Notes under the pieces: generated by a model | Seen by the model: the letters and a program-made list of their open reading frames with translations, nothing else | Database searches by the model: none | Told to the model about the DNA's origin: nothing | Origin: Escherichia coli | GTDB lineage: Bacteria; Pseudomonadota; Gammaproteobacteria; Enterobacterales; Enterobacteriaceae | Length of the DNA stretch: 64,000 bases | Direction: 5' to 3' (one strand) | Assembly (NCBI RefSeq): GCF_030013595.1 | Contig: NZ_CP122769.1 | Program-made: the position numbers and the translations under genes | In this document: in pieces, positions 10,194 through 61,374 of the stretch | Layout of the letters: each line of letters begins with the position of its first letter | Numbering within the stretch: the stretch's first letter is position 1

Positions 10194-10226
10194 CAACGAT
10201 AACTCCCCCGCTTTTTGCGGGGGGGG

Positions 10227-10270
10227 TTATCTTATCAATATTATATTTTAAAATTGTATTGATAAGATAA
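10227..10270 (+). promoter_or_regulatory. 14-bp perfect inverted repeat TTATCTTATCAATA / TATTGATAAGATAA separated by 16-bp AT-rich spacer; candidate operator
   Basis: Read directly from sequence; follows the hairpin CCCCCGCTTTTTGCGGGGG (10205-10227) inside a 270-bp ORF-free gap. Confidence 0.4.
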
Positions 10271-10463
10271 CCGCTTTCCTTCGTGATAATTACCTGCCTT
10301 TAAGGTCTTTTCACGGCTGAGATGCTTGCTCAGTTAAATAAATGTGCGGTACTACTGGCTATGGTCGGTTGTATGACATGGTTATTCCATAAACTATTAA
10401 AACCCATAACGGGAGTATTACCGTTATGGTGATGCTCGTCGTTTTACATCGGAGAGCATTTTA

Positions 10464-11063: not shown

Positions 11064-11942
11064 ATGAAGTTAGCTACGGACCTGGTAAAAGCTATTTTGA
11101 TTAGAAATGGCGTTGAACCAGTAAATATAAGCGAATCATCTAAGTTATCTTTGAAACAACCACTGACAGAACTTAAATTCAGTTTATATTTGCGAACTGA
11201 GCATTTATCTCACTTCCTACCCGGTTATGTTTATTCTATAAAAGAATGTCCACTGTCATATGACATCGGGATCGAAATTCAGAAAATCTTCGAAAGTTTA
11301 CATTTGTTAAACGAAGAATTTGAATCCCTCGGTTTTGTTTCTGTATGGATAGAAATGCATCAAAGCATTTTTGAACAAAGTCGGTTTAAGAAAAGTAACT
11401 TTACTTTTCGGGAGGAAGAGGTCGAGCTTGCTAAAGGGCTTGTTTGTTCTCACAATTCACAAATAAGTAATGCGGCTTATTTCTGGCTTCAGCACTTTGA
11501 GGAGTTTATGATTTATGTTCGTAATAAGCTTATCGACCTCTTTCGAGAGGCCTATGACCTGATCCTTGGAATGCAGCAAGTATTTTTCATTCGGGAAAAG
11601 GAAGAGCTGTTGAAAACTATAAGTTATGGCGATGAGCTGTATGAGGTGAAATTCATGGCGGCTGAGCTTTACTCTATCGAACAGAACTTAAAGTGTTCTG
11701 AATCGATAAGTACAAAATCTCAAGCTTCGGCATATATTAACCGCATCCGTGAGTTTGTGCGTTCGGGGTGGAGGCAGGGCTATATAGTCTGCCATCATAA
11801 GCGAAGTAATCAAATTTCATCATTGTCATTACCGATGTACTTGAAAGATACGTCAGGCCGAAGTGCTCGAAAGCGAGTAAAACGTCTTATATCTTCTACA
11901 GTTTGTGGTAGAAATAAAGATTTAGGTCTTACAGATTTTTAA
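11064..11942 (+). CDS. hypothetical protein
   Basis: 292-aa ORF with RBS GGAGG upstream, preceded by stem-loop CCCTGATG...CATCAGGG; no recognisable motifs. Confidence 0.45.
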   Translation: MKLATDLVKAILIRNGVEPVNISESSKLSLKQPLTELKFSLYLRTEHLSHFLPGYVYSIKECPLSYDIGIEIQKIFESLHLLNEEFESLGFVSVWIEMHQSIFEQSRFKKSNFTFREEEVELAKGLVCSHNSQISNAAYFWLQHFEEFMIYVRNKLIDLFREAYDLILGMQQVFFIREKEELLKTISYGDELYEVKFMAAELYSIEQNLKCSESISTKSQASAYINRIREFVRSGWRQGYIVCHHKRSNQISSLSLPMYLKDTSGRSARKRVKRLISSTVCGRNKDLGLTDF

Positions 11943-11960
11943 TTAAATTATACCCATGTG

Positions 11961-11996
11961 GGGATCACACCCCATATGGGAGTGATCCCTTTTTTT
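11961..11996 (+). terminator. stem-loop GGGATCAC...GTGATCCC with nested palindrome CCCATATGGG, followed by T7
   Basis: Inverted repeats and T-run read from sequence, between stop at 11942 and ATG at 12013. Confidence 0.5.
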
Positions 11997-12012
11997 ATTG
12001 AGAGAGGATCAC

Positions 12013-12948
12013 ATGAAAATTATCGAAAAAATCATTAATGCCTTTTTGGTTGTTCAACATAAAAAAATACAGGTTAAAAACATTACATTTTTAGACAATG
12101 GGCAGGGCATGTTCTCTGGTATGTCTTTTGATGCTGATGTTTCACTGGAGTTTATGTATGAATCAGCAAAAGCATATAGTTCTTGTTTCTTTGATATTCC
12201 CTTTCCAGGTTTTGAAGATGCAAATCTGGAGGAAATTACGAAATTTCAATTAGATGCTTTGAAGCAAAGAAAGAATCATTCTTTCTTTGTTAACCATTTG
12301 AGGTTTCCTATAGTTTTAAGGGAAGGGTGCAAAATCGAAAGAGGAGAAGTCTATTCAATTTCGAATTGCACTTATAATAAAGAAAGATTGCAGTATCTTT
12401 TTTCTCAGGATATTTACGGTAAGTTGTATAATTCCTTAGAGAAAGAATTAAGCTCGTTTTTCTCATTTATCAATGTTGAGGTGCACGAGTTGTTAAAAGA
12501 TGCTGTATGCTTTGCATTAAAAATCCTGAATAAGATATCTTTGGATACACCTGAAAGACTTATTAAAGCTTTTAATTATCGTGACTGGTATTGTAGTTAC
12601 GATGTTGAGCTTTTTAGGAAAGGCTTACCTGGTCATATTCTGGAAGAGCTCATTGCTCCAGATATCTTACTTTCAGACCTTAACGGTTGTAGAAAAATAC
12701 TTAGAAATGCAAAACGATTTCTAAATGGACATACACAAACCAATTGTGTTTATATTAAATATGAATGGTGGTTGGGGCCTGTTGATACCTCACACTCAGC
12801 TAAGTTGATGTCTGACAAAGAAATTAATAACCGAAGTGACTTGAAGAATTTTTCAAAGGTCTTTTTCAAAGAGTGTTTAAGTTCTGGTAAGTCGGAATAT
12901 GAAAACCATCTTAGTGAAAAAGAACATGCGCTTCGCTATAATTATTAA
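12013..12948 (+). CDS. hypothetical protein (~312 aa), first of a tandem array of similarly sized genes
   Basis: ATG at 12013 preceded by RBS GAGAGAGGA (the listed ORF starts at an upstream TTG). No recognisable motifs. Confidence 0.45.
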   Translation: MKIIEKIINAFLVVQHKKIQVKNITFLDNGQGMFSGMSFDADVSLEFMYESAKAYSSCFFDIPFPGFEDANLEEITKFQLDALKQRKNHSFFVNHLRFPIVLREGCKIERGEVYSISNCTYNKERLQYLFSQDIYGKLYNSLEKELSSFFSFINVEVHELLKDAVCFALKILNKISLDTPERLIKAFNYRDWYCSYDVELFRKGLPGHILEELIAPDILLSDLNGCRKILRNAKRFLNGHTQTNCVYIKYEWWLGPVDTSHSAKLMSDKEINNRSDLKNFSKVFFKECLSSGKSEYENHLSEKEHALRYNY

Positions 12949-13016
12949 TTAAAATTATTTTCTCCCATAGGGATTTCTCCCTATGGGAGAAATCCCTCTA
13001 TTAAGAGGGTATTGAA

Positions 13017-13688
13017 ATGAATGCTATACAAAAGTTAGTTGAATCTATTCTTGTTAAAATGGGTTTTGTTGGCGCTGTAGTGGAAAATATATATTTGGAT
13101 TCAAAACCATTTCGGCATATTCGATTTGTGGCTGATATTCCAGTAATATCTTTTCTACCTCATTTGGTGAAATATCTTAAGGGTGCAGACCATCTTTACA
13201 GTGGTAACGATGATTTGCATCCTCTTTTCATTTATTTTTCCGAAGCGGCTACATTAAAAGCAGGTCCTGTAAATCTCGCGAACTTTCGTTTTGAAGTTTC
13301 TATAGCTTCAACTCATTTACGACTGGTCTCAGAGCAGCCTGATTTGCTTTTCAAAGGATTTAACCGGGATAATCTAGAATACGTTTATTACCGCTCAGAT
13401 TTGGCCTCTAGGGATCTTATACTAGGCCTTGTTGAACACGGTTCTCCTTTCATAAAACATCTACATGGACTTATACAAAAGCGAATTTTAAACGAGTTCT
13501 CTCTGATTTTTTCTGTTCTTGAAAAGATTTTAGAAAGCGCGAAGCCACAAATTCTTGCTTGCTTCCATAGTGTTGATTATGAAATGAACGTAAAAATAAT
13601 AGCCGAAGCTATACCTGAAACTGTATCTAATCAGATAGTCACATCTGATTATATAGTTAATGTTAGCGCCAATGATATAAGACTGTAA
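13017..13688 (+). pseudogene. 5' part of a gene interrupted by the IS21-family element
   Basis: Stop codon TAA (13686-13688) lies inside the first bases of the IS end TGTAATTCGCC; the reading frame resumes in the same frame after the element (15787 onward). Confidence 0.5.
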
Positions 13689-13761
13689 TTCGCCATTTGG
13701 GTTGTCCGCTCCACCCAACATGTTGTTTCCTTGAGGTTCTCACACCAGAAAGGACATCGAC

Positions 13762-15731
<1,970 letters not shown>

Positions 15732-15786
15732 TCAAATAGCGGACATTAAAAATGGCGAAAACCGGCCATAAATCTTGGCGTTGACA

Positions 15787-16067
15787 TTAATTCTATATCA
15801 GATGCGGACAAGTTTATAAATCATGTTCGTCGCTATTTAGCAGGCAGGGTAATGAAGAGGCGGATATACGCTGAATTAGATGTTTGTGAAGAAACATCAA
15901 GTATTTCACTAGTGAACTTAGGATGCTTTACGTCTCCTCTGCTCGTTACGGAATATCAAATGTTTAAGCCACACTCTTCAGGGTTATATCGAAAAGCTAT
16001 AAACAACTCCTTAAAACAGTTCAAACCAGAAATGCATGTACCTTCTGAAGAACTCTTTTATAATTAA
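15787..16067 (+). pseudogene. 3' part of the gene interrupted by the IS21-family element
   Basis: Frame is open from the IS end to stop at 16067 and is the same frame (mod 3) as the 5' part; combined length about 316 aa, matching neighbouring genes. Confidence 0.45.
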
Positions 16068-16078
16068 TCTAACCCATC

Positions 16079-16115
16079 CGGGAACCTGCTTCCCGGTGGG
16101 AAGCACTTCCTTTTT
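16079..16115 (+). terminator. stem-loop cassette CCGGGAACCTGCTTCCCGG / GGGAAGCACTTCC followed by T5
   Basis: Inverted repeats and T-run between stop at 16067 and RBS/ATG at 16134. Confidence 0.5.
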
Positions 16116-16133
16116 AGTCATGAGGTAGTGTAA

Positions 16134-17072
16134 ATGTTTAAAGAATCTGACCACGTGGAATTTGTTAGTGCCTTTCTTTATCAAAATTTAGGCCTTAATG
16201 TTTCCGCTGACGATATAACCGTTCAATTATCTGATACTTCGTTCGACAAAGTAACCTTTGATTACGATGTAGATATCGATAATTTAAATTGTATGTTGGA
16301 TCTCTACATATCTGAGCTAATAAAGCACAACGCATCTTACTCCGATTCTATTCTTTTGAAACAAAAAATAATTTATTTTCTTGGAGTATTTAAGAATTTC
16401 GGATTTTTTACGTTTGATATTCGCGGATATAGTAATACTTTAAGCCCAGTTAAAGTTATTGATATTGTTTCAATGATTATTAATGACTGTGAAGAGTTAT
16501 CTAAAGCTAATTCTTCTACTGATGCTATAAGAAATCTTTATCTCGATAAAATGAAGGTGGATGGGAAAGTGTTAGTTGCGAAATTTGCACTTAAACAGTT
16601 TTTTCATTCCGACTTTGGTGACTTTATCTCATTTGTCGAGAAAAGAATTACAGATTGTCTTAATGAAACTTTAAGGATTATCAAAGCTGTTGAACATGGC
16701 TTTGTACGTGTAGGGCAGCATAAGATTAATCGCCGTATTAATGATGACTTAAAGTTATGCATTGATTTCAATACTGATGATTATCCGGCAAATATGCCAG
16801 ATATATATATTAAGTTTAACGATACATTTGATGGGAACGGGGCGTTATATTGTGACAATGATGCCCTCATATCCCTCTATACCGATGTTGCTTCAATTAT
16901 CAATGTGCCGGTGATGATGGAAGTAAGATTGATCAATAAAAGAGGGCGTGTTGTCTGTGATTCTTCGCATTCAACTTACGTATCTCTCGAAAGTAATGAC
17001 CGATACAGAGTAACTGATCGCACATTACTAATAACTGAAGCTTTTGACGATTTTCGTAACGCGTCTCAATGA
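16134..17072 (+). CDS. hypothetical protein, paralogue A of tandem pair
   Basis: 312-aa ORF with RBS GAGGTAGTG. Shares colinear blocks with next gene (KVLVAKFALKQFFHSDFGDFISFVEKRIT vs QVMIARFALQQFWDTHFIGLITFVSESIT; EAFDDFRN vs EVFDNLRN). Confidence 0.5.
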   Translation: MFKESDHVEFVSAFLYQNLGLNVSADDITVQLSDTSFDKVTFDYDVDIDNLNCMLDLYISELIKHNASYSDSILLKQKIIYFLGVFKNFGFFTFDIRGYSNTLSPVKVIDIVSMIINDCEELSKANSSTDAIRNLYLDKMKVDGKVLVAKFALKQFFHSDFGDFISFVEKRITDCLNETLRIIKAVEHGFVRVGQHKINRRINDDLKLCIDFNTDDYPANMPDIYIKFNDTFDGNGALYCDNDALISLYTDVASIINVPVMMEVRLINKRGRVVCDSSHSTYVSLESNDRYRVTDRTLLITEAFDDFRNASQ

Positions 17073-17237
17073 TCCTTTTGCTTCAGTCCAAAAAAGTAAC
17101 TTTGGTTGGCTGAAGACACTTGTCTATGACAATGTAAAATCTGTCGCTGGCATCTTCTTTTAGCTTAACCAAATTTTTATCTAACCCAGTGGGGAAGTCG
17201 CTTCCCTTCTGGGGCACTTCCTCTCAAATTCGAGGTA

Positions 17238-18200
17238 GTGTATATGACACATTCATCTGATGATAAAAACTATGTCCGAGCAGTTCTGAGTTATCTTGGC
17301 ATAGATTTTGATGAGGCGGATATAGTATTAAGTGTTTGCCATTGTCAAAGTGACGAGCTTTCTTTTACCTGTAATATCAAAGCTATTGAACTCAAGAATG
17401 CTGTTGATTTATATGTCGATAGTATCTCTGAGAATGAAATAGAAGCTTTAAACAGAGAATCTTTAAAATCGCGACTCTGTTACTTTCTTGAGGTGTTTGA
17501 CGCAGTCTCTGGTCAGTACCTTGAAATTTCAGGAAAACACTTTGCAACTAGTCGTTTTGAATATGATGATGTTTGTAGTGAAGTTCTTAGCATGTCTAAT
17601 GATGTTTCTCAGTCGAAAGGTTATGACCGGGATGAATATAACAGACTGATGCAGGTTGATGGTCAGGTTATGATTGCCCGTTTTGCTTTGCAACAGTTCT
17701 GGGATACTCATTTTATTGGACTAATAACATTTGTATCTGAGTCTATAACATCGAGCCTCTATAAAGCTTATGAAACTTTTAGTGATATTAGTTTGGCTTG
17801 CTATAAACTGAGTGAATATTCTTATTCACGCTCTATCAACAGTGAATTGACCCTTAATATTTCACTTAAAGAAAATGACTTCTGTGAGGACCTATCTGAT
17901 TGCTATATGGAAGATGAGGCTTTACCTTCTGGTAGGGTAATTTCTCGACGCAACAATGACTCCATAATAAGTATTTATGAGAGCTATGCTGCGGCTTCTT
18001 ATATTCCGATGATTGCATCTTTGGAAGTCGTTGATGAATACGGCGAAGTGGTTACTGACCTCTGCCATACCGTTTATGTTTCAGAGTTAACCGGTGGGCG
18101 GATTAAAATCCACGACCGTAATGACTTAGTATCTGAAGTTTTCGATAACCTAAGAAATTTAAATCTTGCAGTTGGAGATTCAGTTTCACAAGCTGCTTGA
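17238..18200 (+). CDS. hypothetical protein, paralogue B of tandem pair
   Basis: 320-aa ORF with identical RBS context (GAGGTAGTGTATATG); colinear similarity to 16134-17072 product. Confidence 0.5.
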   Translation: MYMTHSSDDKNYVRAVLSYLGIDFDEADIVLSVCHCQSDELSFTCNIKAIELKNAVDLYVDSISENEIEALNRESLKSRLCYFLEVFDAVSGQYLEISGKHFATSRFEYDDVCSEVLSMSNDVSQSKGYDRDEYNRLMQVDGQVMIARFALQQFWDTHFIGLITFVSESITSSLYKAYETFSDISLACYKLSEYSYSRSINSELTLNISLKENDFCEDLSDCYMEDEALPSGRVISRRNNDSIISIYESYAAASYIPMIASLEVVDEYGEVVTDLCHTVYVSELTGGRIKIHDRNDLVSEVFDNLRNLNLAVGDSVSQAA

Positions 18201-18239
18201 TTCTTTCCCTGATTTTGATTTTTTCTCACATACTCTTAT

Positions 18240-18263
18240 GGCACGGTTTCCGTGCCTTTTTTT
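18240..18263 (+). terminator. Rho-independent terminator GGCACGGTTTCCGTGCC + T7
   Basis: Perfect 7-bp stem with 3-nt loop followed by TTTTTTT, 40 bp after stop at 18200. Confidence 0.6.
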
Positions 18264-18462
18264 GCCTCGCTTACAAGCGTCTACTCCTCTTCTACCTATC
18301 CCACCTTACATCACCACTTAAAATCTATCTTTCTAATTCCATTATCCTTTTCGTAGCCTCTAATGCTCTGGTATGAACATACTCTTTAAACTCAAAAAAG
18401 TGCTATTAACGAAAAAAAATCCCTAAAGAGATTTGTATACTGTTCTCAACCAAGGAGAGCTC

Positions 18463-18738
18463 ATGAATGAACTAAAATCCAAAAACGAGAACAGTACCAA
18501 AAGCAACTTTCCCCCGGTTGATAATCAGTTTTGCTTTTACCATGTTGATTTCAGCATAGAACGACTACTTTCTACGGCCGAGGATCTCCAGCTTGAGTAC
18601 ATCTTCCAGAAACCTGGAAGTGAAGTAAGAAAGGATTTGGTTGAGCGATTTGAACGTGGAGAGCGCTTTGTTACAGCTTCACACTGTGACAATTTCTGTG
18701 AAATCCTTGGTTGTCAAGGCCATCAGGAAAATGCATAA
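18463..18738 (+). CDS. hypothetical small protein
   Basis: ATG at 18463 preceded by RBS AAGGAG (listed ORF starts at upstream TTG). No recognisable motifs. Confidence 0.35.
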   Translation: MNELKSKNENSTKSNFPPVDNQFCFYHVDFSIERLLSTAEDLQLEYIFQKPGSEVRKDLVERFERGERFVTASHCDNFCEILGCQGHQENA

Positions 18739-18782
18739 ACCCATAAACCTACATTTCCACTTTTAAGGATGTTCACTAAAGA

Positions 18783-19373
18783 ATGATTGGAGAAAGTATT
18801 TTTGACTGGGTAATTTACGGAATATCCATTTTGATATTTGCCTCAGCACTAATTGAAGGAAAGACAACTCGCTACCCAGCACTTTTTTTCTATGGGAGTT
18901 TAATTTTAATGTTAATCCTGATAGTTGCTGGAGGCCTTAACTGGTGGTTCTACAGGTCAAAATATGGCGCAGTAATCGTTATCTTCACAGTGGTTTCTTT
19001 ACTGATGACTCGATTCCGCCTGGTCATATATAAATTAAGATTAAGAAAGTTAGTTTCAGAGATCAGATTTCGTATAAAAACGGGTTTTCGTATAATTCTT
19101 GTTTTGTCGGATAATGAGGATGAGCGTAATGTTCTGCTGTCTATGCTTAGCAACGTATTGCCAGAGCAAACGCTTATTCACACGCGTGATGCTCTCGGAC
19201 CTCATTCAGGGCCTATCCTAAAAGCTCTTGAGCTACATCATCAACAGGGAACAGGTTACATACTCGTCTGTGAACAACAAATCTCAGCGCGTACGTGGTT
19301 GAGTATCGTAGAAAATGGGAAACCTGATACATCTATAGCTGTTAATTTTCATTCGATCCCAGAAATGGAGTGA
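18783..19373 (+). CDS. hypothetical membrane protein
   Basis: 196-aa ORF with three predicted hydrophobic segments in the N-terminal 75 aa. Confidence 0.45.
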   Translation: MIGESIFDWVIYGISILIFASALIEGKTTRYPALFFYGSLILMLILIVAGGLNWWFYRSKYGAVIVIFTVVSLLMTRFRLVIYKLRLRKLVSEIRFRIKTGFRIILVLSDNEDERNVLLSMLSNVLPEQTLIHTRDALGPHSGPILKALELHHQQGTGYILVCEQQISARTWLSIVENGKPDTSIAVNFHSIPEME

Positions 19374-19380
19374 TTTTTCA

Positions 19381-19638
19381 ATGAGTAGAACCGTTTCACA
19401 AAGTGTCACAGAAGATTGTCTTTTTGATACCCGCACACAAGTCAGATTACAACTAAGTCGAAGCGTTCATAAAACGCTGGCATCTGCTAAAGAAATTTTA
19501 CAGGGAAGGGGGGTTGATTCGGTCTCTATTGAAGATCTTGTGCGAGCCTGTCTTGAAGAGAACCAGCCAATTGATCTCGCCTCACTTTACCTTGAAAATC
19601 TCTTAAAACAGAAAGGTACCAGCATTTGCGATTTTTAG
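19381..19638 (+). CDS. hypothetical small protein
   Basis: 85-aa ORF starting 8 bp after previous stop; no recognisable motifs. Confidence 0.35.
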   Translation: MSRTVSQSVTEDCLFDTRTQVRLQLSRSVHKTLASAKEILQGRGVDSVSIEDLVRACLEENQPIDLASLYLENLLKQKGTSICDF

Positions 19639-19711
19639 TGTTTTCAAACCTATTAGATAAAATGCCGGTTGTGTTTATATAACATCAATAATTTCATGCA
19701 ACAGGTAAAAC

Positions 19712-20248
19712 ATGAGTACTCAAAAGCAACTTTCCAGAACAACCGGCACTGAACGTATGTTTAAGGAAGAGCTGGCGTTATCCTTAATTTGTTGGGTTTT
19801 CACCAGTCCATTTACCAACTGGACCGATAAAGTCTTCAGTGGTATTGAAGTTCCGTCTGAAGGACCGTCAACATTACTGGGTGAGGCTGAAAAATTCTTT
19901 CGTTTTGTCGTTAATGAAGAAGGCTACGACGCAGGAAGGGCTGCTCTTGGTCTTGACCTATGTTGTTTTTCACTTCCGTCGTGTTTGTTCCCGGACGCTG
20001 CCCTGTCTGAGGAAGAGGTTATGAGTAAGTTAACCGGAGAAGTTATCCATGGGATTCTTCTTTCCTTACCTGAATTTATTGATATGCCAGAAGTGCTCGC
20101 TTACCAGGTCAGGGATGAAATTCTTGCTTTTAACACTCGCTGTGGAGACGGGATCTTTCATGGTTGGAACACGGCTTCAGAATTGTGGAAGTTTGAAATC
20201 TTTCCCCGCACCACCATCATGATGCAGCATACTTCGGCAATACATTAA
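19712..20248 (+). CDS. hypothetical protein
   Basis: 178-aa ORF; no recognisable motifs. Confidence 0.4.
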   Translation: MSTQKQLSRTTGTERMFKEELALSLICWVFTSPFTNWTDKVFSGIEVPSEGPSTLLGEAEKFFRFVVNEEGYDAGRAALGLDLCCFSLPSCLFPDAALSEEEVMSKLTGEVIHGILLSLPEFIDMPEVLAYQVRDEILAFNTRCGDGIFHGWNTASELWKFEIFPRTTIMMQHTSAIH

Positions 20249-20264
20249 AATTAGGCGGGGCAGA

Positions 20265-20711
20265 ATGCATAAAAAACTTTTTCTTCTCGAATGGAAACCC
20301 TGTCAGAGCCGCGTATGGGCCGGTTGGATGGCCCTGTGGTTGACTATCAGTTTTCTGATGTTATCTGCCTTGCTTATGACAGATCATCTCCTGAACAAAG
20401 TCATCCTGCCGCCAACATGGTTGTTGATCTGGTTTTCGCCAATGCTGGGGTTTTTGATAAAAGTTCGCGTCGTCGAAACTCAACATTTCCTGGAGCATGA
20501 CCTCTGTGTTGCAGGTTTCTCTTTTTACCGCTGGAAGAGGTTAGTTTCTCCCGGGCTTTGGTCAGTTGACTGTATAAATGGTCGTTTTCGCCTCAATCGG
20601 ATCACCCAGGTGGGTAAGACTATCCACTATCCATGGCGTCTCCATTATCATCCTTTGTTCATGAGCCCTATCGAACATAAATCGCATGCTGTGAAAGCTG
20701 TTTCAAAATGA
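20265..20711 (+). CDS. hypothetical membrane protein
   Basis: 148-aa ORF with hydrophobic N-terminal segments (WMALWLTISFLMLSALLM). Confidence 0.4.
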   Translation: MHKKLFLLEWKPCQSRVWAGWMALWLTISFLMLSALLMTDHLLNKVILPPTWLLIWFSPMLGFLIKVRVVETQHFLEHDLCVAGFSFYRWKRLVSPGLWSVDCINGRFRLNRITQVGKTIHYPWRLHYHPLFMSPIEHKSHAVKAVSK

Positions 20712-20783
20712 CTTCTTTAGAGGTTTACATGACATTTATGTTCTGCAAGGTCAGCCAGGGCAGCAAAATTGATTTGAAATAAC

Positions 20784-21764
20784 ATGAGCCTGGAGAAACG
20801 TATGAGTTATGACGATTTGCCCTATTTTCGTGACCAGATTCTGGAACGTATCGACTCGCTTAAGTGTTTTCTTTCGAACACCCCCCCGCTGATGGCAAAC
20901 CTGATGACTGTCTCCACCGTATCTCGAACAGAAGAGCGACTGAAGCAGGTTAAACCCATCAGGGTTAGTGTTAAAGACGATGCTTCGGTTGAGGAAATTA
21001 TTCAGGCACTTACTGACATCTGTGTGGATGACATAGAGTCATTAAGTCATGATTCCACCAAAGTGACCACTAAATACCCGGGTCTTATCATTGTCCCAGA
21101 AAGAGCAGATCTTCTCGAAAGCTTGATCACATCTATAAATGAAGCAAAAAATGATTTTGCTGCGGCAATGAGGCGTATCGATAATAAAAAGAATGTCCGT
21201 TTTGATAAAGTGCACAAGAAGCTCCCGGGCCTTGTCGCTATGCACTCAACAAGAAATGTCCTTTTCATCAAGTCCCAGCTTAAAAAAGTTACTTTTTCAT
21301 GGCGGCTAAACCGAAACCAGGAAGTTAAAACAGCAGAGCAACTTGTGAGTTTGTTGGAGCGCAGGAGAGCCTCAGAAGTAAAAAATGTAGCAACTACCAA
21401 TTTGAATGTCGTGTCTAATATCGATAAGGCTTTACACCGTCTTGAATTTCACCCACTGAAGCAGGGCGAATCTTATCGCCTTTGTCGAACTAACTCTTTC
21501 CCTGTTCCGATTGCTCACATTTTTGCATTTAGGCCTGAAGGGCAGGAACGAAACGGGAATAAATATGCTGAGACTGATTATTCAGTAGTAAAAGCATCCT
21601 TGCCCATTTTCGCAGCAGGCAACATACCTCAATTAAAAACGCTCTCTGACTGGGCTCCTGAAAACAGCCAGGGCCCGTCCAACCAACGGAAGCTGAGCCT
21701 GAAATATACAGAACTCGTGCCGGGGGCTGAGCTGGGCATTTTCATTGTCAGCCCCGAAAATTAA
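20784..21764 (+). CDS. hypothetical protein
   Basis: 326-aa ORF; alternative start at ATG 20823 has a better RBS (GGAGAAACG). No recognisable motifs. Confidence 0.45.
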   Translation: MSLEKRMSYDDLPYFRDQILERIDSLKCFLSNTPPLMANLMTVSTVSRTEERLKQVKPIRVSVKDDASVEEIIQALTDICVDDIESLSHDSTKVTTKYPGLIIVPERADLLESLITSINEAKNDFAAAMRRIDNKKNVRFDKVHKKLPGLVAMHSTRNVLFIKSQLKKVTFSWRLNRNQEVKTAEQLVSLLERRRASEVKNVATTNLNVVSNIDKALHRLEFHPLKQGESYRLCRTNSFPVPIAHIFAFRPEGQERNGNKYAETDYSVVKASLPIFAAGNIPQLKTLSDWAPENSQGPSNQRKLSLKYTELVPGAELGIFIVSPEN

Positions 21765-21773
21765 GGAACAACA

Positions 21774-22679
21774 ATGCAATGGATTTCCACAGCCAGCCAG
21801 AAAATCGATGAGCGTCTCTATCGTGTCTGCGTCTGGGTAAAAAAATATCACGCTGATGCGATTAACCGCGTTGTGCTTACCGTTGATCTAAGTAAAGCCC
21901 GACATGACCCTGACGAGGACCAGGTAAGAGCAGAGCTGCTGTGCGGCCATTATTTTTTGCTTCGTAAGGAAAACGCTTCGAACTCTGCGCCTGACGATCA
22001 AAAGTTTGCTTTCCTGCCTGACGGGCGCAATCTGTGTTGGCAGACCGCAACCCCGGTGCTTCAGCATCTCCTGCTCAATAAAAACGTTCCTGAGTCGCTG
22101 AGGTTGCTTACGGACTACATACATATGCGTCTGGCCAGGCTGACAATGGTACCAATGTCCGGAACCATCATGAACGAGGCTCTGCTGGACAGCATCAGCT
22201 GGGTTAAGGTGGATTTGACCTACTTCTGGCAGTATGAACAGCTCAGCTCTCATCTGGGACCCATCCAGATAACCCACAAGGCACTAGTACGCTTCGGGCA
22301 TCTGGCAAAGAATGATGAAAACTCCAGTGCCATAAGAATCCTGCGTCAGCGTCTGTCTTCAGAATTCTTACAAGAATTTCAGATGGCTGAGGATGAGCTA
22401 AAGCGCAAACAGTCGTTGATGGGCACCATGGACGTGAAAATGCTGTTTCATGCTCATTACCCCAGCCAGAAGATGCTGGTGGCTCGATATAAAAATGGTT
22501 GGGTAATGGTGGATTGTTTTCTGTTTCATCATACCAAACCTAAGAAAAAAGCAAAAAACAAAACTACTGTGGCTAAGCCTCAACTTAAAGAGACTAAAAG
22601 AGAAGGGAGTGAAAATGGAACTGGGCATTATGGTGTGCATCGTGTTGTTACTCTCCGTGGCGGCGGCGTGGATCAGTAA
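21774..22679 (+). CDS. hypothetical protein
   Basis: 301-aa ORF with RBS AAGGAA upstream; basic C-terminal tail. Confidence 0.45.
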   Translation: MQWISTASQKIDERLYRVCVWVKKYHADAINRVVLTVDLSKARHDPDEDQVRAELLCGHYFLLRKENASNSAPDDQKFAFLPDGRNLCWQTATPVLQHLLLNKNVPESLRLLTDYIHMRLARLTMVPMSGTIMNEALLDSISWVKVDLTYFWQYEQLSSHLGPIQITHKALVRFGHLAKNDENSSAIRILRQRLSSEFLQEFQMAEDELKRKQSLMGTMDVKMLFHAHYPSQKMLVARYKNGWVMVDCFLFHHTKPKKKAKNKTTVAKPQLKETKREGSENGTGHYGVHRVVTLRGGGVDQ

Positions 22680-22959
22680 TAAGACAGTTGATTTGCTCGA
22701 AAGATTCTATTTCAAGCGTCCGCTGAGCATGGAGTACGCGGCATGGCTACGTGTAATGTGTGCAGGCTTGTTATTGGTTTTTATTCAGGTTGCTCCACAA
22801 TTTACACTTCTGTATACCCTTAAACTTGTCACGCTTATTAATCTTGGAATCCAGACAATGAAATTAAATGGCGTGTACAAATATAAAAGAACGGGAATTT
22901 TGCCTCCGGGAGGGGCACTCTCTAATCTCACCAGACTTAACCCGTTCAAGAAAAAATAA
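22615..22959 (+). CDS. hypothetical small membrane protein
   Basis: ATG at 22615 with RBS GGGAGTG; two hydrophobic segments; overlaps 3' end of previous ORF in another frame. Confidence 0.35.
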   Translation: MELGIMVCIVLLLSVAAAWISNKTVDLLERFYFKRPLSMEYAAWLRVMCAGLLLVFIQVAPQFTLLYTLKLVTLINLGIQTMKLNGVYKYKRTGILPPGGALSNLTRLNPFKKK

Positions 22960-22965
22960 AGTTAT

Positions 22966-22981
22966 GCGCCCGTGAGGGCGC
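22966..22981. terminator. palindrome GCGCCCGTGAGGGCGC between convergent genes
   Basis: Perfect 6-bp stem with GTGA loop flanked by A-run upstream and T-rich sequence downstream; positioned between plus-strand stop (22959) and minus-strand stop (22981). Confidence 0.4.
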
Positions 22982-24171
22982 TATTCATCAAAGGCATTTC
23001 GCATAAGCTTGATCATTGCTTTTTTACCAGCTTCAATATTACGAATGTAGCGCATAACCATTTCTTCATTCGACCAGTTCCCCATTTCCATAATCTGTGG
23101 TAGCGAGTAACCTTCAATATTTAGCTGTATCGCTCCGCCTACACGAACGCTGTGCCCTGTCCAGTAACGAGTTTTAGTCTCATTTGGATAAAGCTCATTC
23201 CACATCTCTTTAAATGCTCGTAAAAGGGAATTTTTGCTGAGCATACCGGCATCGTCCACAGTGTCTTCTTCATCTTCATCTTCATCGTTCAGAAGACTTT
23301 GCTTAGCACGATAGGGTAGGTTATGCCTTTTAAGAAGTTCAGATAGCTCATTCCCCTTACTCCGAAGCTTCCAGCCGGGTGGCATATAGCCTGTATCATG
23401 GAAATTTACGGCCTGGAAAAGGAATTCATCCGGATGACTGTGCTGATCCATTTTCACGAGGTTCATCAATCTCAAGAGGCAGTTAGTTAACTGACGTGTC
23501 AGCCGGTAGGTAAGAAGTGTACTAATGTTCGTTTTTGTACGGTATACCGTCAGGTTAAATTCACCGGTCATACTATCCAGAGACAGATCTTTCAGACGTA
23601 TACGTCGAATTTCGGATGAACGGAGCAGTGTTTCAAAGCCTGTCCAGATCAGGCACAGGTCACGAAGTTTACGAACTGAGTTTGTAGTACTGCGTAACTT
23701 TATCAGAGCCTTGAGATCGCCAATAAGAAAGGGAGTTGCCTGTTTAGTCGTCTTTCGCTTCCGGGCTTCCGATTGTTTTAAGGCTTCCAGCATGTACCAT
23801 GCTTCAGACGTAATAATCCCGGGCAGGTTAAGCCCTTTTTTATGGATACTATTTAAGGCCTGAAGACAGCTGTTTATGCTGCTTCGTGACAATTTGCCTT
23901 CAAGATGCCCCATAAACGCAAGCAGAGCGTCCTCAGACACGGGGAGCGAACTTACTGGCCAGTCTGTATGCAACCGGGCATTCGCCAGATACCATTCGTT
24001 CCATACTCGTAGCCAGTGCAGATAGGTTTTAGCAGTGTTGTATCTCAGATGGGAAAAGTAACGGATCAAGCGTGAAAGCTGTTTATCATGGTTGCCGAAC
24101 GTTTCCAGCTGCTGATGCAATTCGCTTTCCGAAAACTGTCTGATCACTGATTGATTCTTCATCCTGCTCAC
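22981..24171 (-). CDS. tyrosine site-specific recombinase (phage-integrase family)
   Basis: C-terminal catalytic signature: LRSSEIRRIRLKDL (Arg), WTGHSVRVGGA (HxxR), MVMRYIRN (Tyr). Confidence 0.75.
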   Translation of the reverse strand: MSRMKNQSVIRQFSESELHQQLETFGNHDKQLSRLIRYFSHLRYNTAKTYLHWLRVWNEWYLANARLHTDWPVSSLPVSEDALLAFMGHLEGKLSRSSINSCLQALNSIHKKGLNLPGIITSEAWYMLEALKQSEARKRKTTKQATPFLIGDLKALIKLRSTTNSVRKLRDLCLIWTGFETLLRSSEIRRIRLKDLSLDSMTGEFNLTVYRTKTNISTLLTYRLTRQLTNCLLRLMNLVKMDQHSHPDEFLFQAVNFHDTGYMPPGWKLRSKGNELSELLKRHNLPYRAKQSLLNDEDEDEEDTVDDAGMLSKNSLLRAFKEMWNELYPNETKTRYWTGHSVRVGGAIQLNIEGYSLPQIMEMGNWSNEEMVMRYIRNIEAGKKAMIKLMRNAFDE

Positions 24172-24326
24172 CGGGATACACTGGTTTTAATTACAGGTCA
24201 TTTTAGCACTCATGTACCTGGTTATGAACAGGGTGGAAACAACGAAAAAGGTTGTGAAATCGTTAGGCTTAAGTGAAAAATGATATTAAGATTATCCTTG
24301 GCCAGTTGAGGCCTGTCTAAAGAAGG

Positions 24327-24545
24327 TTGATTATGTCTGACACAAAGCAGTCTTATTTAATGAAATTCCGTAAGTGTAGTTCGTTCGAAACGCTCGAAAA
24401 AGTATTTGAAAGGTTATGTGAAAAAAACTCGGGTGTCGCCTCTCTTGAAATTTCTGGTGCTTATGATCATCGTAAAGCCGAACTGACAATGAAAAAGTTA
24501 TATGACAAAGTTCCTGCGAGTGTGTGGACCTTTGTTCGCGAGTAA
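24327..24545 (+). CDS. hypothetical small protein
   Basis: 72-aa ORF followed by hairpin GCCCCTTTCGGGGC; no recognisable motifs. Confidence 0.3.
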   Translation: MIMSDTKQSYLMKFRKCSSFETLEKVFERLCEKNSGVASLEISGAYDHRKAELTMKKLYDKVPASVWTFVRE

Positions 24546-24875
24546 TTATTAATATTGGCACAACAAAAAGACTGTGCCTGGATTTGAAAATAGTTTATGC
24601 CCCTTTCGGGGCTAAAGGCATTGTAATAGCCTGTCTTTTAAAGTTGTTTATTAAGTTCGGAGAAAAACTTTAATCATAAGCCAAGCCCACTGCTAAATAC
24701 ATCCGATATTCTCCTTCATTTTATTAGAAGTGATAAAAGTTACTTTACCTAAACTTCTCTCTCAATATTTGTAAGGCTCTCATTTGATTTTTGTCAAACA
24801 TTAATCTGGAAGACGGAAAAATCATTTCTTTTAATACGTTTTACAGAAATCCTCCTCCGTTATTTCGGATATAGT

Positions 24876-25988
24876 TTGAATCATTATCAAAAACGGGGTG
24901 CAGCCATGCGTAAGAGTTATACATTTGGTATTCCATTTGGACTCCAGCGTGAATCAGGACTCTTTTTAGATATTACAGAGGTCAGCCGGGGTATTGACTG
25001 TAACTGCATCTGCCCCGCTTGCAAAACTGATCTGTTAGCAAAGCAGGGGGAGGTCAAGCTTTGGCATTTCTCACACAGTACAGCTGTAGCCGGTGACTGT
25101 GATGGTCTGATGGAAGCCATCCGGGGAAAGATTATTGAAGTCATCAACGAGCACCAGGTTCTTGGTTTCCCAAATCTTCTCGCTGGCGACGATGGTGGGC
25201 CGGTTTCACTGAATGAGGTTAGTGGAAGCGGCAGTATGTTCGGAGGCACAGCTGATCTGTTCGTAAAGGTTAATGATTTATGTGTGGCCGTCTTTCTGGA
25301 CAGGGATCGCAGCATTTCAGAGAAGTTAACCTTTGACCATCTTCATCCTTCCGAAAGAGTTGCCGCATTGCGTATCGATCTTCCTGATATTGAATATGAA
25401 ATCAGTCAGGTGCAGCTCGGGCGACGTAAAACAACATACAGTGAGTGCATTGAAAGCCTGATCATTGATGAGACCAGTTCCCGGGAATGGCTATATCATC
25501 CATTAATGCATGAACTTGAATCTGAACCTCTTCAGGAGTATCGGGGACGGGAGCCTTCAGAGGAAGGGCCTCTTCTTCAGCGCCTTGCTGACTGTAAGAT
25601 GAAATTGCCTGATATCCTTCCGGGCAGTCATAACGCGCTAGTCAGGTTACAGCAGGATACGATTGTATGTCTGTGTCGGTTAACGGTTCGGGCTTATGAC
25701 ATCGCTCAGACCGATGAATTTCCTTTGTTCCTTCGCTATTTCAGGTTGCACTGCCTGGAAAACAGCGAACATGTCAGTTACGAAAGACTGATCTGCTGGC
25801 AGGAAATGATTTCAAAAACCCAGGAAGGCCAGTCCTTGACACAAAACGAACTTGAATATCTTCATGAGATTGTCCGCATCGCCTTTTACAATCACCGGCT
25901 TAACAATGTCAGTATTTCAGATGTTAAAAACCATGACACTGGAAAGAAGAGCGGCAGGGTAGAGTCACAAAACTATTCACTTTTATAA
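24876..25988 (+). CDS. hypothetical protein with N-terminal Cys/His motif, possibly CoiA-like
   Basis: Motif CNCICPACKTDLLAKQGEVKLWHFSH resembles the zinc-finger/HFxH signature recalled for CoiA-family proteins; remainder unassigned. Start may be the internal ATG (MRKSYTFG). Confidence 0.35.
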   Translation: MNHYQKRGAAMRKSYTFGIPFGLQRESGLFLDITEVSRGIDCNCICPACKTDLLAKQGEVKLWHFSHSTAVAGDCDGLMEAIRGKIIEVINEHQVLGFPNLLAGDDGGPVSLNEVSGSGSMFGGTADLFVKVNDLCVAVFLDRDRSISEKLTFDHLHPSERVAALRIDLPDIEYEISQVQLGRRKTTYSECIESLIIDETSSREWLYHPLMHELESEPLQEYRGREPSEEGPLLQRLADCKMKLPDILPGSHNALVRLQQDTIVCLCRLTVRAYDIAQTDEFPLFLRYFRLHCLENSEHVSYERLICWQEMISKTQEGQSLTQNELEYLHEIVRIAFYNHRLNNVSISDVKNHDTGKKSGRVESQNYSLL

Positions 25989-30357: not shown

Positions 30358-30442
30358 AATTTTCCTCGTACGGCTGGTACGGCCAGCAGAAAACGTTGCT
30401 GTACAGAAAGGTGCTGCCCGGAAAGCAGCACCTTTCTGTCTG

Positions 30443-54614: not shown

Positions 54615-55207
54615 TGAAGCCTCGTCTCAGCGATAACGCTTGAAATAGCCCGCTTTGGTCATCATGAAATTAGCCATCTGACTGGCGATTTGATTGTATC
54701 TTACTCATAGTGCCCTACCTATAGGTTAAAAAGGGGCATTTTCGCTTTATAGCGTGTTCAGCAGCATCAATCCTCCCAAGAAAGGCTGGCTTATTAAGCC
54801 GGTCCATCATTTTCTGTATATCTCTCATCAATTTTTATATCCGCCCTGGAGTGCACCGTTCAAGCACACCGATTAGGCAGATAGTCACTAGTTAACTCTT
54901 TACTAGTGACTAAATTCCATTGATATACGTGACAACGTCACGTCATGAAAGCTTTTAAATGCCTATTTTTCATACAATGGGATTTAATTAGGAGTAAATC
55001 CCATAGGCTTACATAAGGATGACAATTAAAAGCGTTAAATATCAACCAGATAGAATGATTACCCCCAATTAATGGGCTCATCACATTATTTCACTGGCTG
55101 GGGTTATTGCTGGCATATCTGAAAGTGCTAATATGTTAGTCATTAGTAATTAGTAAAGCCTTTACTAAACGCGTTTCTACGTAAATTCTATAGGTTTTAT
55201 AGGGTCC

Positions 55208-55290
55208 TGTCCGAGGACAATAAAGTTGTACACAAAGCACTAAAGTTGTAACCATTCTCAAAAAACGACGCTAATGTTGTATACTTACTG
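55208..55290 (+). repeat. Tn7-like end with three TnsB-binding-type repeats (AAAGTTGTA core)
   Basis: GACAATAAAGTTGTACAC, CACTAAAGTTGTAACC, CGCTAATGTTGTATAC in direct orientation within 80 bp of the TGT terminus. Confidence 0.6.
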
Positions 55291-55365
55291 AATGTGTGGT
55301 TATAGGGTTGGAGACTATAAAATGCACATATAGGTACGTATCAATGTCGTTTTTAGGGTACGATC

Positions 55366-56208
55366 ATGGCTAGGGGTAGGCGTCTCAAATCCTATTTGGA
55401 TTATGAAAATGCGCTAGGTGACGGCATAGGAGTGGGCTATGGCCAAAGTTATCAGCCCTGGCTTAGAGCTCAGGACGTTAAATCCCGTGGAAACCGTTCG
55501 ATAGTCTTTGGCCTTAAGACGTTTCGAAACCATCATCTCCTTTCTTCTGTCGAAAGTAACTTTTTCTATCTGGCTGAGTTTAATGACTCGGTGATTGATA
55601 TCCGGGAACAATTCCCACTCTTTCCTCTCCGGCTTACCCAACAAATAGCAAATCATCTACATTTTCAACATCCTATGGTGAGGGGAGTAAGAGGAGTACC
55701 TGTCGAAGTTCTGAATGTTATGACAACCGATTTTTTACTGACCTTGAGAACTCCTGAAGGCGGACTTCGATACAAAGCTATAGCAGTAAAACATAACGAG
55801 AGCATACCTGAACGCGAAGCCCAAAAACTTGAAATAGAGAGGATGTTTTGGCAGTTGATTGATGTTGAGTTTCAAATTTATGTTGGCTCGGAACTCAATA
55901 ACGTCGTCGGTAAAAACATTTGCTGGGCTACTTCTGTATTAAGAGATGGTTCTGAATTTTATGATAAATATCCTCTTGATAAAATCCTATGGAAGCTTAA
56001 ACCAGATGTTTATCCCATAGTAGGACTACGTGCAATGATTTCATCAATCTTTGGGGTAGATGCACAAGAAGCGATGATGTTATTGCAGGCAATGATTGGA
56101 TTAAAAATGATAAATGTTGATTTATCATATCCAATACTCGAAACCGGTCTGATAAAGATAATTTCCAATGACCACTATATAGGACTGAACGCAAATGGAT
56201 ATTATTAG
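55366..56208 (+). CDS. tnsA: TnsA-like endonuclease
   Basis: Colinear with Tn7 TnsA (YQPWLRAQDV..., HLLSS, IDIREQFPLFPL, LEIERMFWQ). Confidence 0.85.
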   Translation: MARGRRLKSYLDYENALGDGIGVGYGQSYQPWLRAQDVKSRGNRSIVFGLKTFRNHHLLSSVESNFFYLAEFNDSVIDIREQFPLFPLRLTQQIANHLHFQHPMVRGVRGVPVEVLNVMTTDFLLTLRTPEGGLRYKAIAVKHNESIPEREAQKLEIERMFWQLIDVEFQIYVGSELNNVVGKNICWATSVLRDGSEFYDKYPLDKILWKLKPDVYPIVGLRAMISSIFGVDAQEAMMLLQAMIGLKMINVDLSYPILETGLIKIISNDHYIGLNANGYY

Positions 56209-58318: not shown

Positions 58319-59766
58319 TGAATCTTATACGGCGCGTTTCAGCGATATATAAAGAACAGGAGTTACCTGAGTATCGTGGCAATCCCTTAATTGAAGCACT
58401 TCCTGAAGCGCTTACGGAAGATGAAGTACTTCTGGAAATGAGTTATTTCCCCGAAATTGACGAAAAAATCCGCTGGACTGCCCCGGCGAATGTTAGAGAG
58501 CAGTATGTCGAACGTATAAAGAAATTCCGTTGCCCTCAAACCAATCTTATCCAGGCTTATAAGATGATCTTACGGGCACTTAGGGAAAGCTATGCAGCTC
58601 GTAATCCTTTAAAAAGCGGAACAATTCAATATCTTCATTACTATGGAAATGAGCGTCCTGATATTGAGCCAGAAAGTGGATATTTTAAATCCCAGGCTGA
58701 AACTATTACGATAGTTGGAATGAGTGGTTCTGGAAAAACTACCATGATTGAGCAAGTCATGGAACATTTCCCTCAGATTATAGAACACAGCAGCTATAAA
58801 GGAGTTTTTCCCGGCTTCAGTAAGCAAATTGTATGGGTAAAGATTAATTGTCCATACAATTCAAGTGTGAGAGACCTTTGTGAAGAGATTTTACAAAAAT
58901 TAGATGATGCAATTGGTATTGAACGAACTACACCTGAGATTAGAAATGGTGCTCTGGCTCGCCAGATTGCACAAAGAATTAAATCATCATTTTTGGGTAT
59001 CCTTGTTATTGATGAAATGCAGAGGCTTAAATTTTCAAGAACCGGGGGTGAGAGTAAGTTGATTGATTTTTTACATGAAATTGTAGATTCCATGGGGGTA
59101 TCTATGGTTTTTTGTGGAAATCATCCTTTTGACGAGACGCTGACAAAGAAAATGAGAATTGCCAGGCGGGCAGAGTCTGGTGGTTACATGAAAATTAAGA
59201 ATGTTAGATACGATTCACAAGACTGGCAATCGTTTATTCATTATTTATGGCCATTACAATGGACAAATGTTGAAACTCCATTAAATGATGAGTTAAACGA
59301 AAAATTATTCATTTTATCTAAAGGCAATATTGGATTGGCTCAGATGATTTATCGGGGGGCACAATTAAAGGTTATCGGTAGCGGCAATGAAATCATCACT
59401 GGCGCAGTCTTGTCGGCCTCTGTACCGGTACTCGTGAGTCATACGGAGGAATATAAGGATACTCCACTCCCGGGGGCCGCGACTGAAGATGAGGAAGCTA
59501 AATGGCTCTCTGCATCTAATGAGGGTGATGCTTCGGCTAAAATCATGGCAGAGAAGTCCCTAAAGTCTTTGATCCCTGGGGATATAGACAGGCCACAGCA
59601 CAAGGAATTCGTAGGAAAAATAGACGAGGTTTTGCGCAATTTCGACGAGAAAATACTGTCTCTTGACCACGATCTTGTTATCAACAGAACAGCTGAAAAG
59701 AAAAATACCTACGATGCTCTTCAGCGTTGCGGGCTTATAAATATAGATCCACTTAATAAATTGTAA
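58318..59766 (+). CDS. tnsC: TnsC-like AAA+ ATPase
   Basis: Walker A GMSGSGKTT, Walker B LVIDEMQRL; start overlaps tnsB stop. Confidence 0.85.
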   Translation: MNLIRRVSAIYKEQELPEYRGNPLIEALPEALTEDEVLLEMSYFPEIDEKIRWTAPANVREQYVERIKKFRCPQTNLIQAYKMILRALRESYAARNPLKSGTIQYLHYYGNERPDIEPESGYFKSQAETITIVGMSGSGKTTMIEQVMEHFPQIIEHSSYKGVFPGFSKQIVWVKINCPYNSSVRDLCEEILQKLDDAIGIERTTPEIRNGALARQIAQRIKSSFLGILVIDEMQRLKFSRTGGESKLIDFLHEIVDSMGVSMVFCGNHPFDETLTKKMRIARRAESGGYMKIKNVRYDSQDWQSFIHYLWPLQWTNVETPLNDELNEKLFILSKGNIGLAQMIYRGAQLKVIGSGNEIITGAVLSASVPVLVSHTEEYKDTPLPGAATEDEEAKWLSASNEGDASAKIMAEKSLKSLIPGDIDRPQHKEFVGKIDEVLRNFDEKILSLDHDLVINRTAEKKNTYDALQRCGLINIDPLNKL

Positions 59767-59797
59767 TGAGGTAACAGTTCGTAACGGTCAAAGAGAG

Positions 59798-61363: not shown

Positions 61364-61374
61364 GAGGGAGTTAT

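Follow-up and report, generated by a model that had tools for sequence, protein, structure and literature searches.

The locus described here lies in a 64,000-nucleotide stretch of Escherichia coli DNA (contig NZ_CP122769.1 of assembly GCF_030013595.1), hereafter called the window, in which a tyrosine recombinase gene converges on a block of eight open reading frames (ORFs), o1 to o8, the sixth of which (tus) encodes a Tus-family protein. The original prediction, made from the sequence alone, was of eight consecutive plus-strand ORFs, three of them with transmembrane segments, that end at a hairpin shared with a convergently transcribed tyrosine recombinase. This description was confirmed. The ORF scan gave the eight frames (18463-22959), whose starts agree with the RefSeq annotation (Prokaryotic Genome Annotation Pipeline, PGAP) of identical plasmids, and Kyte-Doolittle hydropathy placed hydrophobic segments in exactly three of the eight, o2 (three segments), o5 (two) and o8 (two to three). 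The shared hairpin (22966-22981) sits between the stop codon of o8 (TAA, 22957-22959) and that of the recombinase gene (22981-22983), and in the product of the latter the recombinase catalytic domain PF00589 scores 50.9 bits, above its cut-off of 27.1 (E=2e-13).

The recombinase resembles Cre of phage P1. When its sequence was searched against the PDB, all 17 chains retrieved at E<=1 were Cre or Tre variants (best E=2e-23), and the alignment with Cre spans both domains of the enzyme (query residues 40-256 and 334-392). In the HMMER alignment of the motifs, residues R181, K210, H337, R340, W363 and Y372 correspond to Cre R173, K201, H289, R292, W315 and Y324, that is, six of the six catalytic positions are present. 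The Xer equivalog test of NCBIfam, by contrast, gave 17 bits for XerC against a cut-off of 335 (E=0.0027), and XerA was also below threshold. From its sequence, then, the enzyme is of the Cre type and not of the Xer type, and its residues predict that it is catalytically intact. It shares with Cre/loxP of P1, as well as with Dre, Vika, Panto, Nigri, VCre and SCre, the two-domain organisation and the catalytic hexad, and with P1 Cre the property of being carried on a large, low-copy extrachromosomal replicon. It differs from Cre in that it is only about 25% identical and some 50 residues longer, and in that it is extended at the N-terminus and has an acidic insertion, DEDEDEEDTVDD, that precedes the H-x-x-R motif. 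Its homologues, which fall into 22 clusters, range from 99% down to 35% identity.

The statement of the original prediction that the ORFs have no recognisable motifs holds for seven of them and fails for o6. This protein scores 69 bits with the Tus profile PF05472, whose cut-off is 22 (E=4.6e-19), over positions 10-208 of the 296 in the profile, so passing the Pfam threshold for the family of E. coli Tus, and PGAP also names it as a Tus-family protein (replication terminus site-binding protein). It is below the cut-offs of the chromosomal Tus equivalogs (53 bits against 323 for NF002810, 21 bits against 178 for TIGR02648), its pairwise match to the sequence of the E. coli Tus structure is marginal (E=0.08), and its identity across plasmid lineages is 59%, 46% and about 25%. 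Family profiles thus identify o6 as a divergent, plasmid-encoded member of the Tus family.

The region as a whole belongs to the core backbone of a conjugative IncHI2 plasmid and is ordinary and long annotated. Bases 18000-25000 are 100% identical to many conjugative plasmids of 190-290 kb from E. coli, Salmonella, Klebsiella and other Enterobacterales. With this 7-kb segment as query, 1419 plasmid records match, 1094 of them covering at least 80% of the query at one place; matches are also found in 395 of the 5426 complete E. coli genomes, where 406 of the places are on plasmids against 9 on chromosomes. The assignment to IncHI2 comes from the RefSeq annotation of the identical plasmids and from the full reading of one IncHI2 plasmid, pCFS3292-1, which is without the Tra1 region. 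Besides hha and hns, this plasmid contains a gene annotated as repHI2, the ter tellurite cluster and the transfer genes trh and htd of the IncHI type; the window itself starts inside trhI. In this one plasmid, the recombinase is the sole site-specific recombinase outside transposons and integrons.

The order of genes around the recombinase is kept well beyond IncHI2. A toprim/DUF7146 gene, an array of paralogs of about 300 amino acids (aa), o1 to o5, tus, o7, o8, the convergent recombinase, the divergent hha and a CoiA-like gene follow one another in IncHI1A, in Pantoea IncHI1B, in the metagenomic plasmid L012 and in Rahnella-type plasmids, and identity to the IncHI2 recombinase is 66% in Pantoea, 63% in IncHI1A, 53% in L012, 37% in Klebsiella and 36% in the Rahnella type. 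The Klebsiella IncFIB/IncHI1B plasmids have only a reduced core, composed of an o4-like gene, tus, the recombinase and hha. Compared with R27 (IncHI1; R0182-R0186) and with the backbone of R478 (IncHI2), the orthologues lie in the same order (hha, Cre-like gene, o8, o7, Tus-like gene); protein identity is 59-78%, and R27 has an IS1-flanked RepFIA-like replicon beside hha that IncHI2 is without. The Cre-like and Tus-like labels were already known from the annotation of R27, in which R0183 is a 'put. cre protein, phage P1' and R0186 is Tus-like (PMC4853401), and the genes are annotated in thousands of records.

Rather than forming a separate unit, o1 to o8 are the tail of a unidirectional array of about 22 kb that begins after trhI, and they constitute its tightly packed last operon, with terminator hairpins at both ends (Table 1). 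The gaps from o1 to o8 are 44, 7, 73, 16, 90, 9 and -65 nt, an operon-like packing in which the last 65 nt of o7 overlap o8. The block had been described as an AT-rich array, which is not the case: its GC content is 43.9% against 44.9% for the whole window, and it is the upstream array that is more AT-rich than the block. Protein-level homologues are found for all eight ORFs at matching positions in other lineages, and o1 to o8 are therefore real genes. No match was obtained in Pfam, NCBIfam, PHROGs or PADLOC for the seven orphans (all but o6), which belong to no recognisable family. Their homologues occur on IncHI-type plasmids only, and three of the seven are predicted membrane proteins.

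Table 1. Coordinates of the features at the recombinase locus (positions in the window).
Feature	Positions	Strand	Description
Intrinsic-terminator-like hairpin GGCACGG-TTT-CCGTGCC + T7	18240-18256	+	Terminator scan; ends the paralog array, 5' boundary of the block
o1	18463-18738	+	91-aa acidic orphan; no match in Pfam, NCBIfam or PADLOC
o2	18783-19373	+	196-aa membrane protein, three N-terminal hydrophobic segments and soluble C-terminal half (predicted, hydropathy); no family match
o3	19381-19638	+	85-aa orphan; start 7 nt past o2
o4	19712-20248	+	178-aa acidic orphan, 25 D/E against 13 K/R
o5	20265-20711	+	148-aa basic membrane protein, two hydrophobic segments (predicted, hydropathy)
o6 (tus)	20802-21764	+	320-aa Tus-family protein, PF05472; homologue of R27 R0186
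o7	21774-22679	+	301-aa orphan; start 9 nt past tus; homologue of R27 R0185
o8	22615-22959	+	114-aa basic membrane protein (predicted), hydrophobic segments; homologue of R27 R0184
Bidirectional terminator-type hairpin GCGCCC-GTGA-GGGCGC	22966-22981	both	Common to the convergent o8 and recombinase transcripts
Tyrosine recombinase	22981-24162	-	393 aa; mechanical ORF reaches GTG at 24171; homologue of R27 R0183
Recombinase promoter, sigma-70-type (TTCATA, 17 nt, TG-TAAAAT; extended -10)	24200-24228	-	Divergent recombinase-hha control region
hha (plasmid, Hha/YmoA family)	24333-24545	+	PF05321, E=9e-19; divergent from recombinase; homologue of R27 R0182

Conservation of the individual orphans varies. 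Homologues of o1 stand at the same position in four other lineages with 41-57% identity; the identity of o2 is 61-63% in L012, Pantoea and IncHI1A and falls to 38% in the Rahnella type; and o3 is 64-65% identical in three lineages, its sole family signal being a sub-threshold TetR_N match (E=0.076). Among the small ORFs, o4 has the most distant conservation (22 homologue clusters), and its fold is predicted with confidence and is without relatives. Identity of o5 in four lineages is 36-58%. For o7, there are only 13 homologue clusters, with 78% identity in IncHI1A and 31% in the Rahnella type, and its AlphaFold2 model is poor (predicted local distance difference test score of 50) and unusable for function. 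Identity of o8 is 54-80%, and its 5' end, in the overlap with o7, shows 100% nucleotide identity among three lineages.

The 3' end of o7 is also a place of insertion. In many IncHI2 plasmids carrying mcr-1, an ISApl1-mcr-1-pap2 unit lies exactly there, before o8 (around 22590; L015 2419-6092), and the annotated o7 coding sequence, 906 nt when uninterrupted, is thereby cut to 876 nt; pCFS3292-1 differs in having the unit after the CoiA-like gene. In view of the insertions at the end of o7, the region is a recurrent landing place for this colistin-resistance cassette.

Upstream of the block, positions 11064-18200 are occupied by tandem paralogous genes of about 290-320 aa without family match, separated by conserved hairpins of the GGGAGAAATCC type (for example, 11950-11991 and 12957-13000). 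An IS21-family element (istA/istB, 13762-15731) splits the third paralog copy. Repeated attempts in R27 failed to yield the deletion Del18, which covers the upstream part of the paralog array through the VWA gene (PMC4853401).

Both hairpins that bound the block fold stably. The one at its 5' boundary has a folding energy of -12.5 kcal/mol (z-score -3.4), and none of 200 shuffled sequences folds as well; the one shared with the recombinase gene gives -13.7 and -13.1 kcal/mol on the two strands (z-scores -2.2 and -2.7). In IncHI1A and in the Pantoea plasmid the stem of the shared hairpin is kept and the loop differs (GTGA, GCAG, GCAT), which fits a real bidirectional terminator. On the other side of the recombinase gene, the promoter block is conserved in the alignment of IncHI2, IncHI1A and Pantoea sequences. 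Linkage of the recombinase to hha was present in every lineage examined, with one extra gene between the two in the Rahnella type, and the recombinase-hha and hha-downstream intergenic regions show promoter-level conservation only. The region upstream of tus showed no conservation across lineages.

The question arises as to what a Cre-type enzyme and a Tus-like protein may do on such a plasmid. We lean, with modest confidence, towards a maintenance module of the IncHI2 backbone that associates a replicon resolvase with Tus-mediated fork arrest. The recombinase would act on a single plasmid site, like P1 Cre, whose natural role is plasmid dimer resolution, and would convert multimers or cointegrates of a low-copy, multi-replicon plasmid to monomers. 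The Tus-like protein would arrest forks at Ter sequences of the plasmid, so that the two together would serve the end of replication, and the orphans may be co-transcribed accessory genes. For the recombinase itself, resolution of plasmid multimers or cointegrates is the most likely role by analogy, because it is the only non-transposon recombinase of pCFS3292-1, because of the role of Cre in P1, and because IncHI plasmids are large and low-copy and have several replicons (this plasmid has at least two replication initiator genes). A resolvase for the replicon was among the functions originally proposed; it stands as the best reading, given a Cre-type enzyme with intact residues, and it is unproven, no site having been found. 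The proposed role is like that of ColE1 cer/XerCD, F ResD/rfsF and RK2 ParA/res, in which a recombinase and one cis site keep the replicon monomeric. However, those systems have the site beside the gene or use the host Xer proteins, whereas the IncHI2 enzyme is of the Cre type, and not Xer, ResD or a serine resolvase.

Several observations weigh against this module. First, Tassinari et al. deleted R0183, R0184, R0185 and R0186 of R27 singly, and these deletions did not account for plasmid instability (PMC4853401). The study also included the combined deletions 183-186 and 185-186, as well as the adjacent segment Del17; none of the deletions explained the instability, which was mapped to incC instead (PMC4853401). 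The assay was an insensitive one, relying on colony picking over about 100 generations in the presence of toxin-antitoxin systems (PMC4853401). Despite this coarseness, the lack of effect speaks against a large contribution to stability.

Second, the search for a terminus was negative or gave no information. No E. coli-type Ter (intact core and G6) was present in the window or next to tus; the GTTGTAAC core occurs 3 times in 64 kb, against 1.5 expected by chance, and none of the three has Ter-like flanks or is near tus, although a divergent, plasmid-specific Ter is possible. GC skew, which was uninformative on fork arrest, shows no terminus at the tus/recombinase locus. The arrangement also differs from that of the E. 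coli chromosome, where TerB is immediately upstream of tus: the plasmid tus lies in an operon with orphan membrane proteins and has no adjacent Ter of the E. coli type. In favour of the module, a published IncHI2 annotation (pSTM6-275) records tus together with a putative ter site.

Third, a target for the recombinase was sought with a scan for lox-like dyads (arms of 11-15 bp, spacer of 6-8 bp) in the window, in the complete IncHI2 plasmid and in five other lineages. No such dyad was found within about 10 kb of the recombinase gene in any of the six lineages, nor was any dyad besides the intergenic hairpins conserved in position across lineages. Between 18 and 25 kb of the window there is no lox-type site with inverted arms of 13-15 bp and a spacer of 6-8 bp; the site could be asymmetric or distant. 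The matches of the scan were terminator-like hairpins, iteron palindromes of RepHI2 and regulatory hairpins of a multi-hairpin intergenic region (10230-10267). In this respect the enzyme departs from the characterised Cre-type recombinases, which have lox-like sites within 1 kb of their gene (PMC10250229): no 13-8-13 site lies within 1 kb or 10 kb of the IncHI2 gene. Finally, an alternative resolution route may exist in a candidate XerCD site, present away from this locus in around half of the IncHI2 set, as considered below.

A 34-bp palindrome of 13-8-13 geometry near hha in IncHI1A, Klebsiella and Pantoea plasmids (TTAATGCTAATG-TATGCGTC-CATTAGCTTTAA) was first taken as the target of the recombinase and then rejected as its specific site. 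Neither the window nor the IncHI2 plasmid has it, whereas 4227 plasmids of diverse types do, and one of these is an IncP-type plasmid that has no Cre-like gene. As an element in its own right, this near-palindrome, TTAA(T/G)GCTAATG-TATGCGT(A/C)-CATTAGC(A/T)TTAA, has lox-like geometry and is mostly present in 2 to 6 copies per plasmid among the 4227 (for example, L002 3504-3537; L004 3170-3201 and 3716-3747; L009 3444-3478 and 3989-4020). In one IncP-type and one Klebsiella plasmid, two copies with mutually inverted spacers flank a gene of 160 aa. The element may be an operator or a recombination or inversion cassette.

Five alternatives to the resolvase and fork-arrest module, and one extension of it, were considered. 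The alternative that survives best, which we nonetheless hold to be unlikely, is that host XerCD resolves dimers of the plasmid at a cer/dif-like site and that the Cre-like enzyme has another job, such as the processing of conjugative-transfer or multi-replicon replication intermediates, or the resolution of cointegrates after conduction. This would explain the lack of a stability phenotype when R0183 is deleted from R27. The scenario is also favoured by the candidate XerCD site AGTACATATAA-CAAAGA-TTATGTTAAAT (pCFS3292-1 109779-109806), whose XerD arm is perfect and which is found in 662 plasmids, and by the fact that the array which begins at trhI, the gene of the transfer helicase, has the recombinase gene at its end. 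However, 662 is about half of the IncHI2 set (around 1400 records carry the block), the window has no dif/cer-like site, the candidate included, the XerC arm has 3 mismatches, matches at the looser scan threshold appear in shuffled sequence as well, and nothing ties the recombinase to transfer. Directly after the candidate site there is a near-consensus LexA box, TACTGTATGTATGTACAG (pCFS3292-1 109779-109830; L007 9779-9830).

The extension, to which we attach little credence, would join tus, o7, o8, the Cre-like recombinase and hha into a single organiser of the plasmid terminus. The Tus-like protein could stall forks at plasmid-specific Ter sequences, the Cre-type enzyme could act on a non-palindromic or distant site, and o7 with the membrane protein o8 could couple or license the reaction, by analogy with FtsK or ArgR/PepA for Xer. 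Such a dependence on accessory factors, if true, would explain the failure of the palindrome searches, and the recombinase would then be an accessory-dependent enzyme of the Cre family with a new target-site architecture.

Somewhat less credible again is the view that the recombinase and the orphan ORFs are passengers, either in decay or without function. The absence of a deletion phenotype in R27 speaks for it, as does the truncation of o7 by the mcr-1 insertion in many successful plasmids. Yet all nine genes are intact and syntenic, and their proteins are still recognisably conserved where identity falls to 25-40%; the enzyme has kept its catalytic hexad, and promoter and terminator are conserved.

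We rate lower still the possibility that the recombinase is a DNA invertase of the Fim, Rci or shufflon kind, switching hha, the recombinase-hha control region or o8. The original prediction had mentioned an invertase, and two observations point that way, a weak match to an NCBIfam family of tyrosine-type DNA invertases (14 bits where the cut-off is 221, E=0.028) and the conserved divergent arrangement of the recombinase and the regulator hha. An invertible segment should be bounded by inverted repeats, and no inverted-repeat pair above chance was detected in 15-27 kb or at short range. Moreover, in 1094 plasmid records one aligned place takes in at least 80% of the query, the split alignments that were inspected proved to be insertions of insertion sequences or mcr-1, not inversions, and the closest relatives of the enzyme are of the Cre type.

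The two remaining scenarios are most improbable, the first of them being effectively refuted. An integrase of a genomic or plasmid island with o1-o8 as its cargo, the other suggestion of the original prediction, would account for a tyrosine recombinase that borders a run of orphan genes; it is contradicted by a gene order that six divergent plasmid lineages share across the block and on either side of it, by direct repeats that do not exceed chance around the block, by the lack of any tRNA gene in the window and of a GC shift, by an enzyme of the Cre type and not of the lambda- or P4-integrase type, and by the chromosomal copy in E. coli PJ-T13, where the IncHI2 backbone is collinear over at least 20 kb on either side of the recombinase with no junction near the gene. 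As for a homologue of the Xer-type housekeeping resolvases, which had been put forward as the outcome that, together with an absence of flanking repeats, would tell against an island, the repeats are indeed lacking and the enzyme groups with Cre and not with Xer: the NCBIfam matches to XerC and XerA that might suggest it are far from threshold, and only Cre and Tre chains were retrieved from the PDB, where solved structures of Xer, lambda Int and integron integrases exist and would fall within the search.

Some other parts of the window deserve mention. Between trhI and the first array gene, a noncoding stretch (1183-1543) is about 88-95% identical between IncHI2 and IncHI1A, against about 64-74% for the adjacent coding sequences. 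It is restricted to IncHI1/IncHI2 plasmids (1396 records) and includes several small dyads, among them a 13-8-13 dyad (1262-1295) that is identical in IncHI2 and IncHI1A plasmids; it has no Rfam match, as was the case for the whole window. Possible roles are those of a regulatory leader, a site of protein binding or an origin-like element. After the toprim/DUF7146 gene, positions 10194-10463 have a layout common to IncHI2, IncHI1A and Rahnella-type plasmids, in which a GC hairpin is followed by an AT-rich dyad (10230-10267; symmetry kept, sequence lineage-specific) and then by conserved blocks and more hairpins. In the terY-associated cluster, a perfect 15-bp inverted repeat with a 7-nt spacer (30403-30439; ACAGAAAGGTGCTGC-CCGGAAA-GCAGCACCTTTCTGT) is probably a terminator. 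Further downstream, a Tn7-like transposition module (55366-62301) comprises a TnsA-like gene, a gene of 707 aa, a TniB/AAA gene and two TniQ/TnsD genes. An intergenic region of 750 bp (54615-55365) lies before it and contains two dyads (54879-54915 and 54975-55006) as well as a lone GTTGTAAC core at 55245.

The present analysis adds little to the existing annotation of these plasmids, and the R27 orthologues were deleted singly in 2016 without stability phenotype. Nevertheless, IncHI plasmids rank among the main carriers of resistance to multiple drugs, to colistin (mcr-1) and to heavy metals, which makes their maintenance functions potential anti-plasmid targets. The recombinase is conserved across all IncHI-like lineages and, if active, could provide a new orthogonal pair of recombinase and site.

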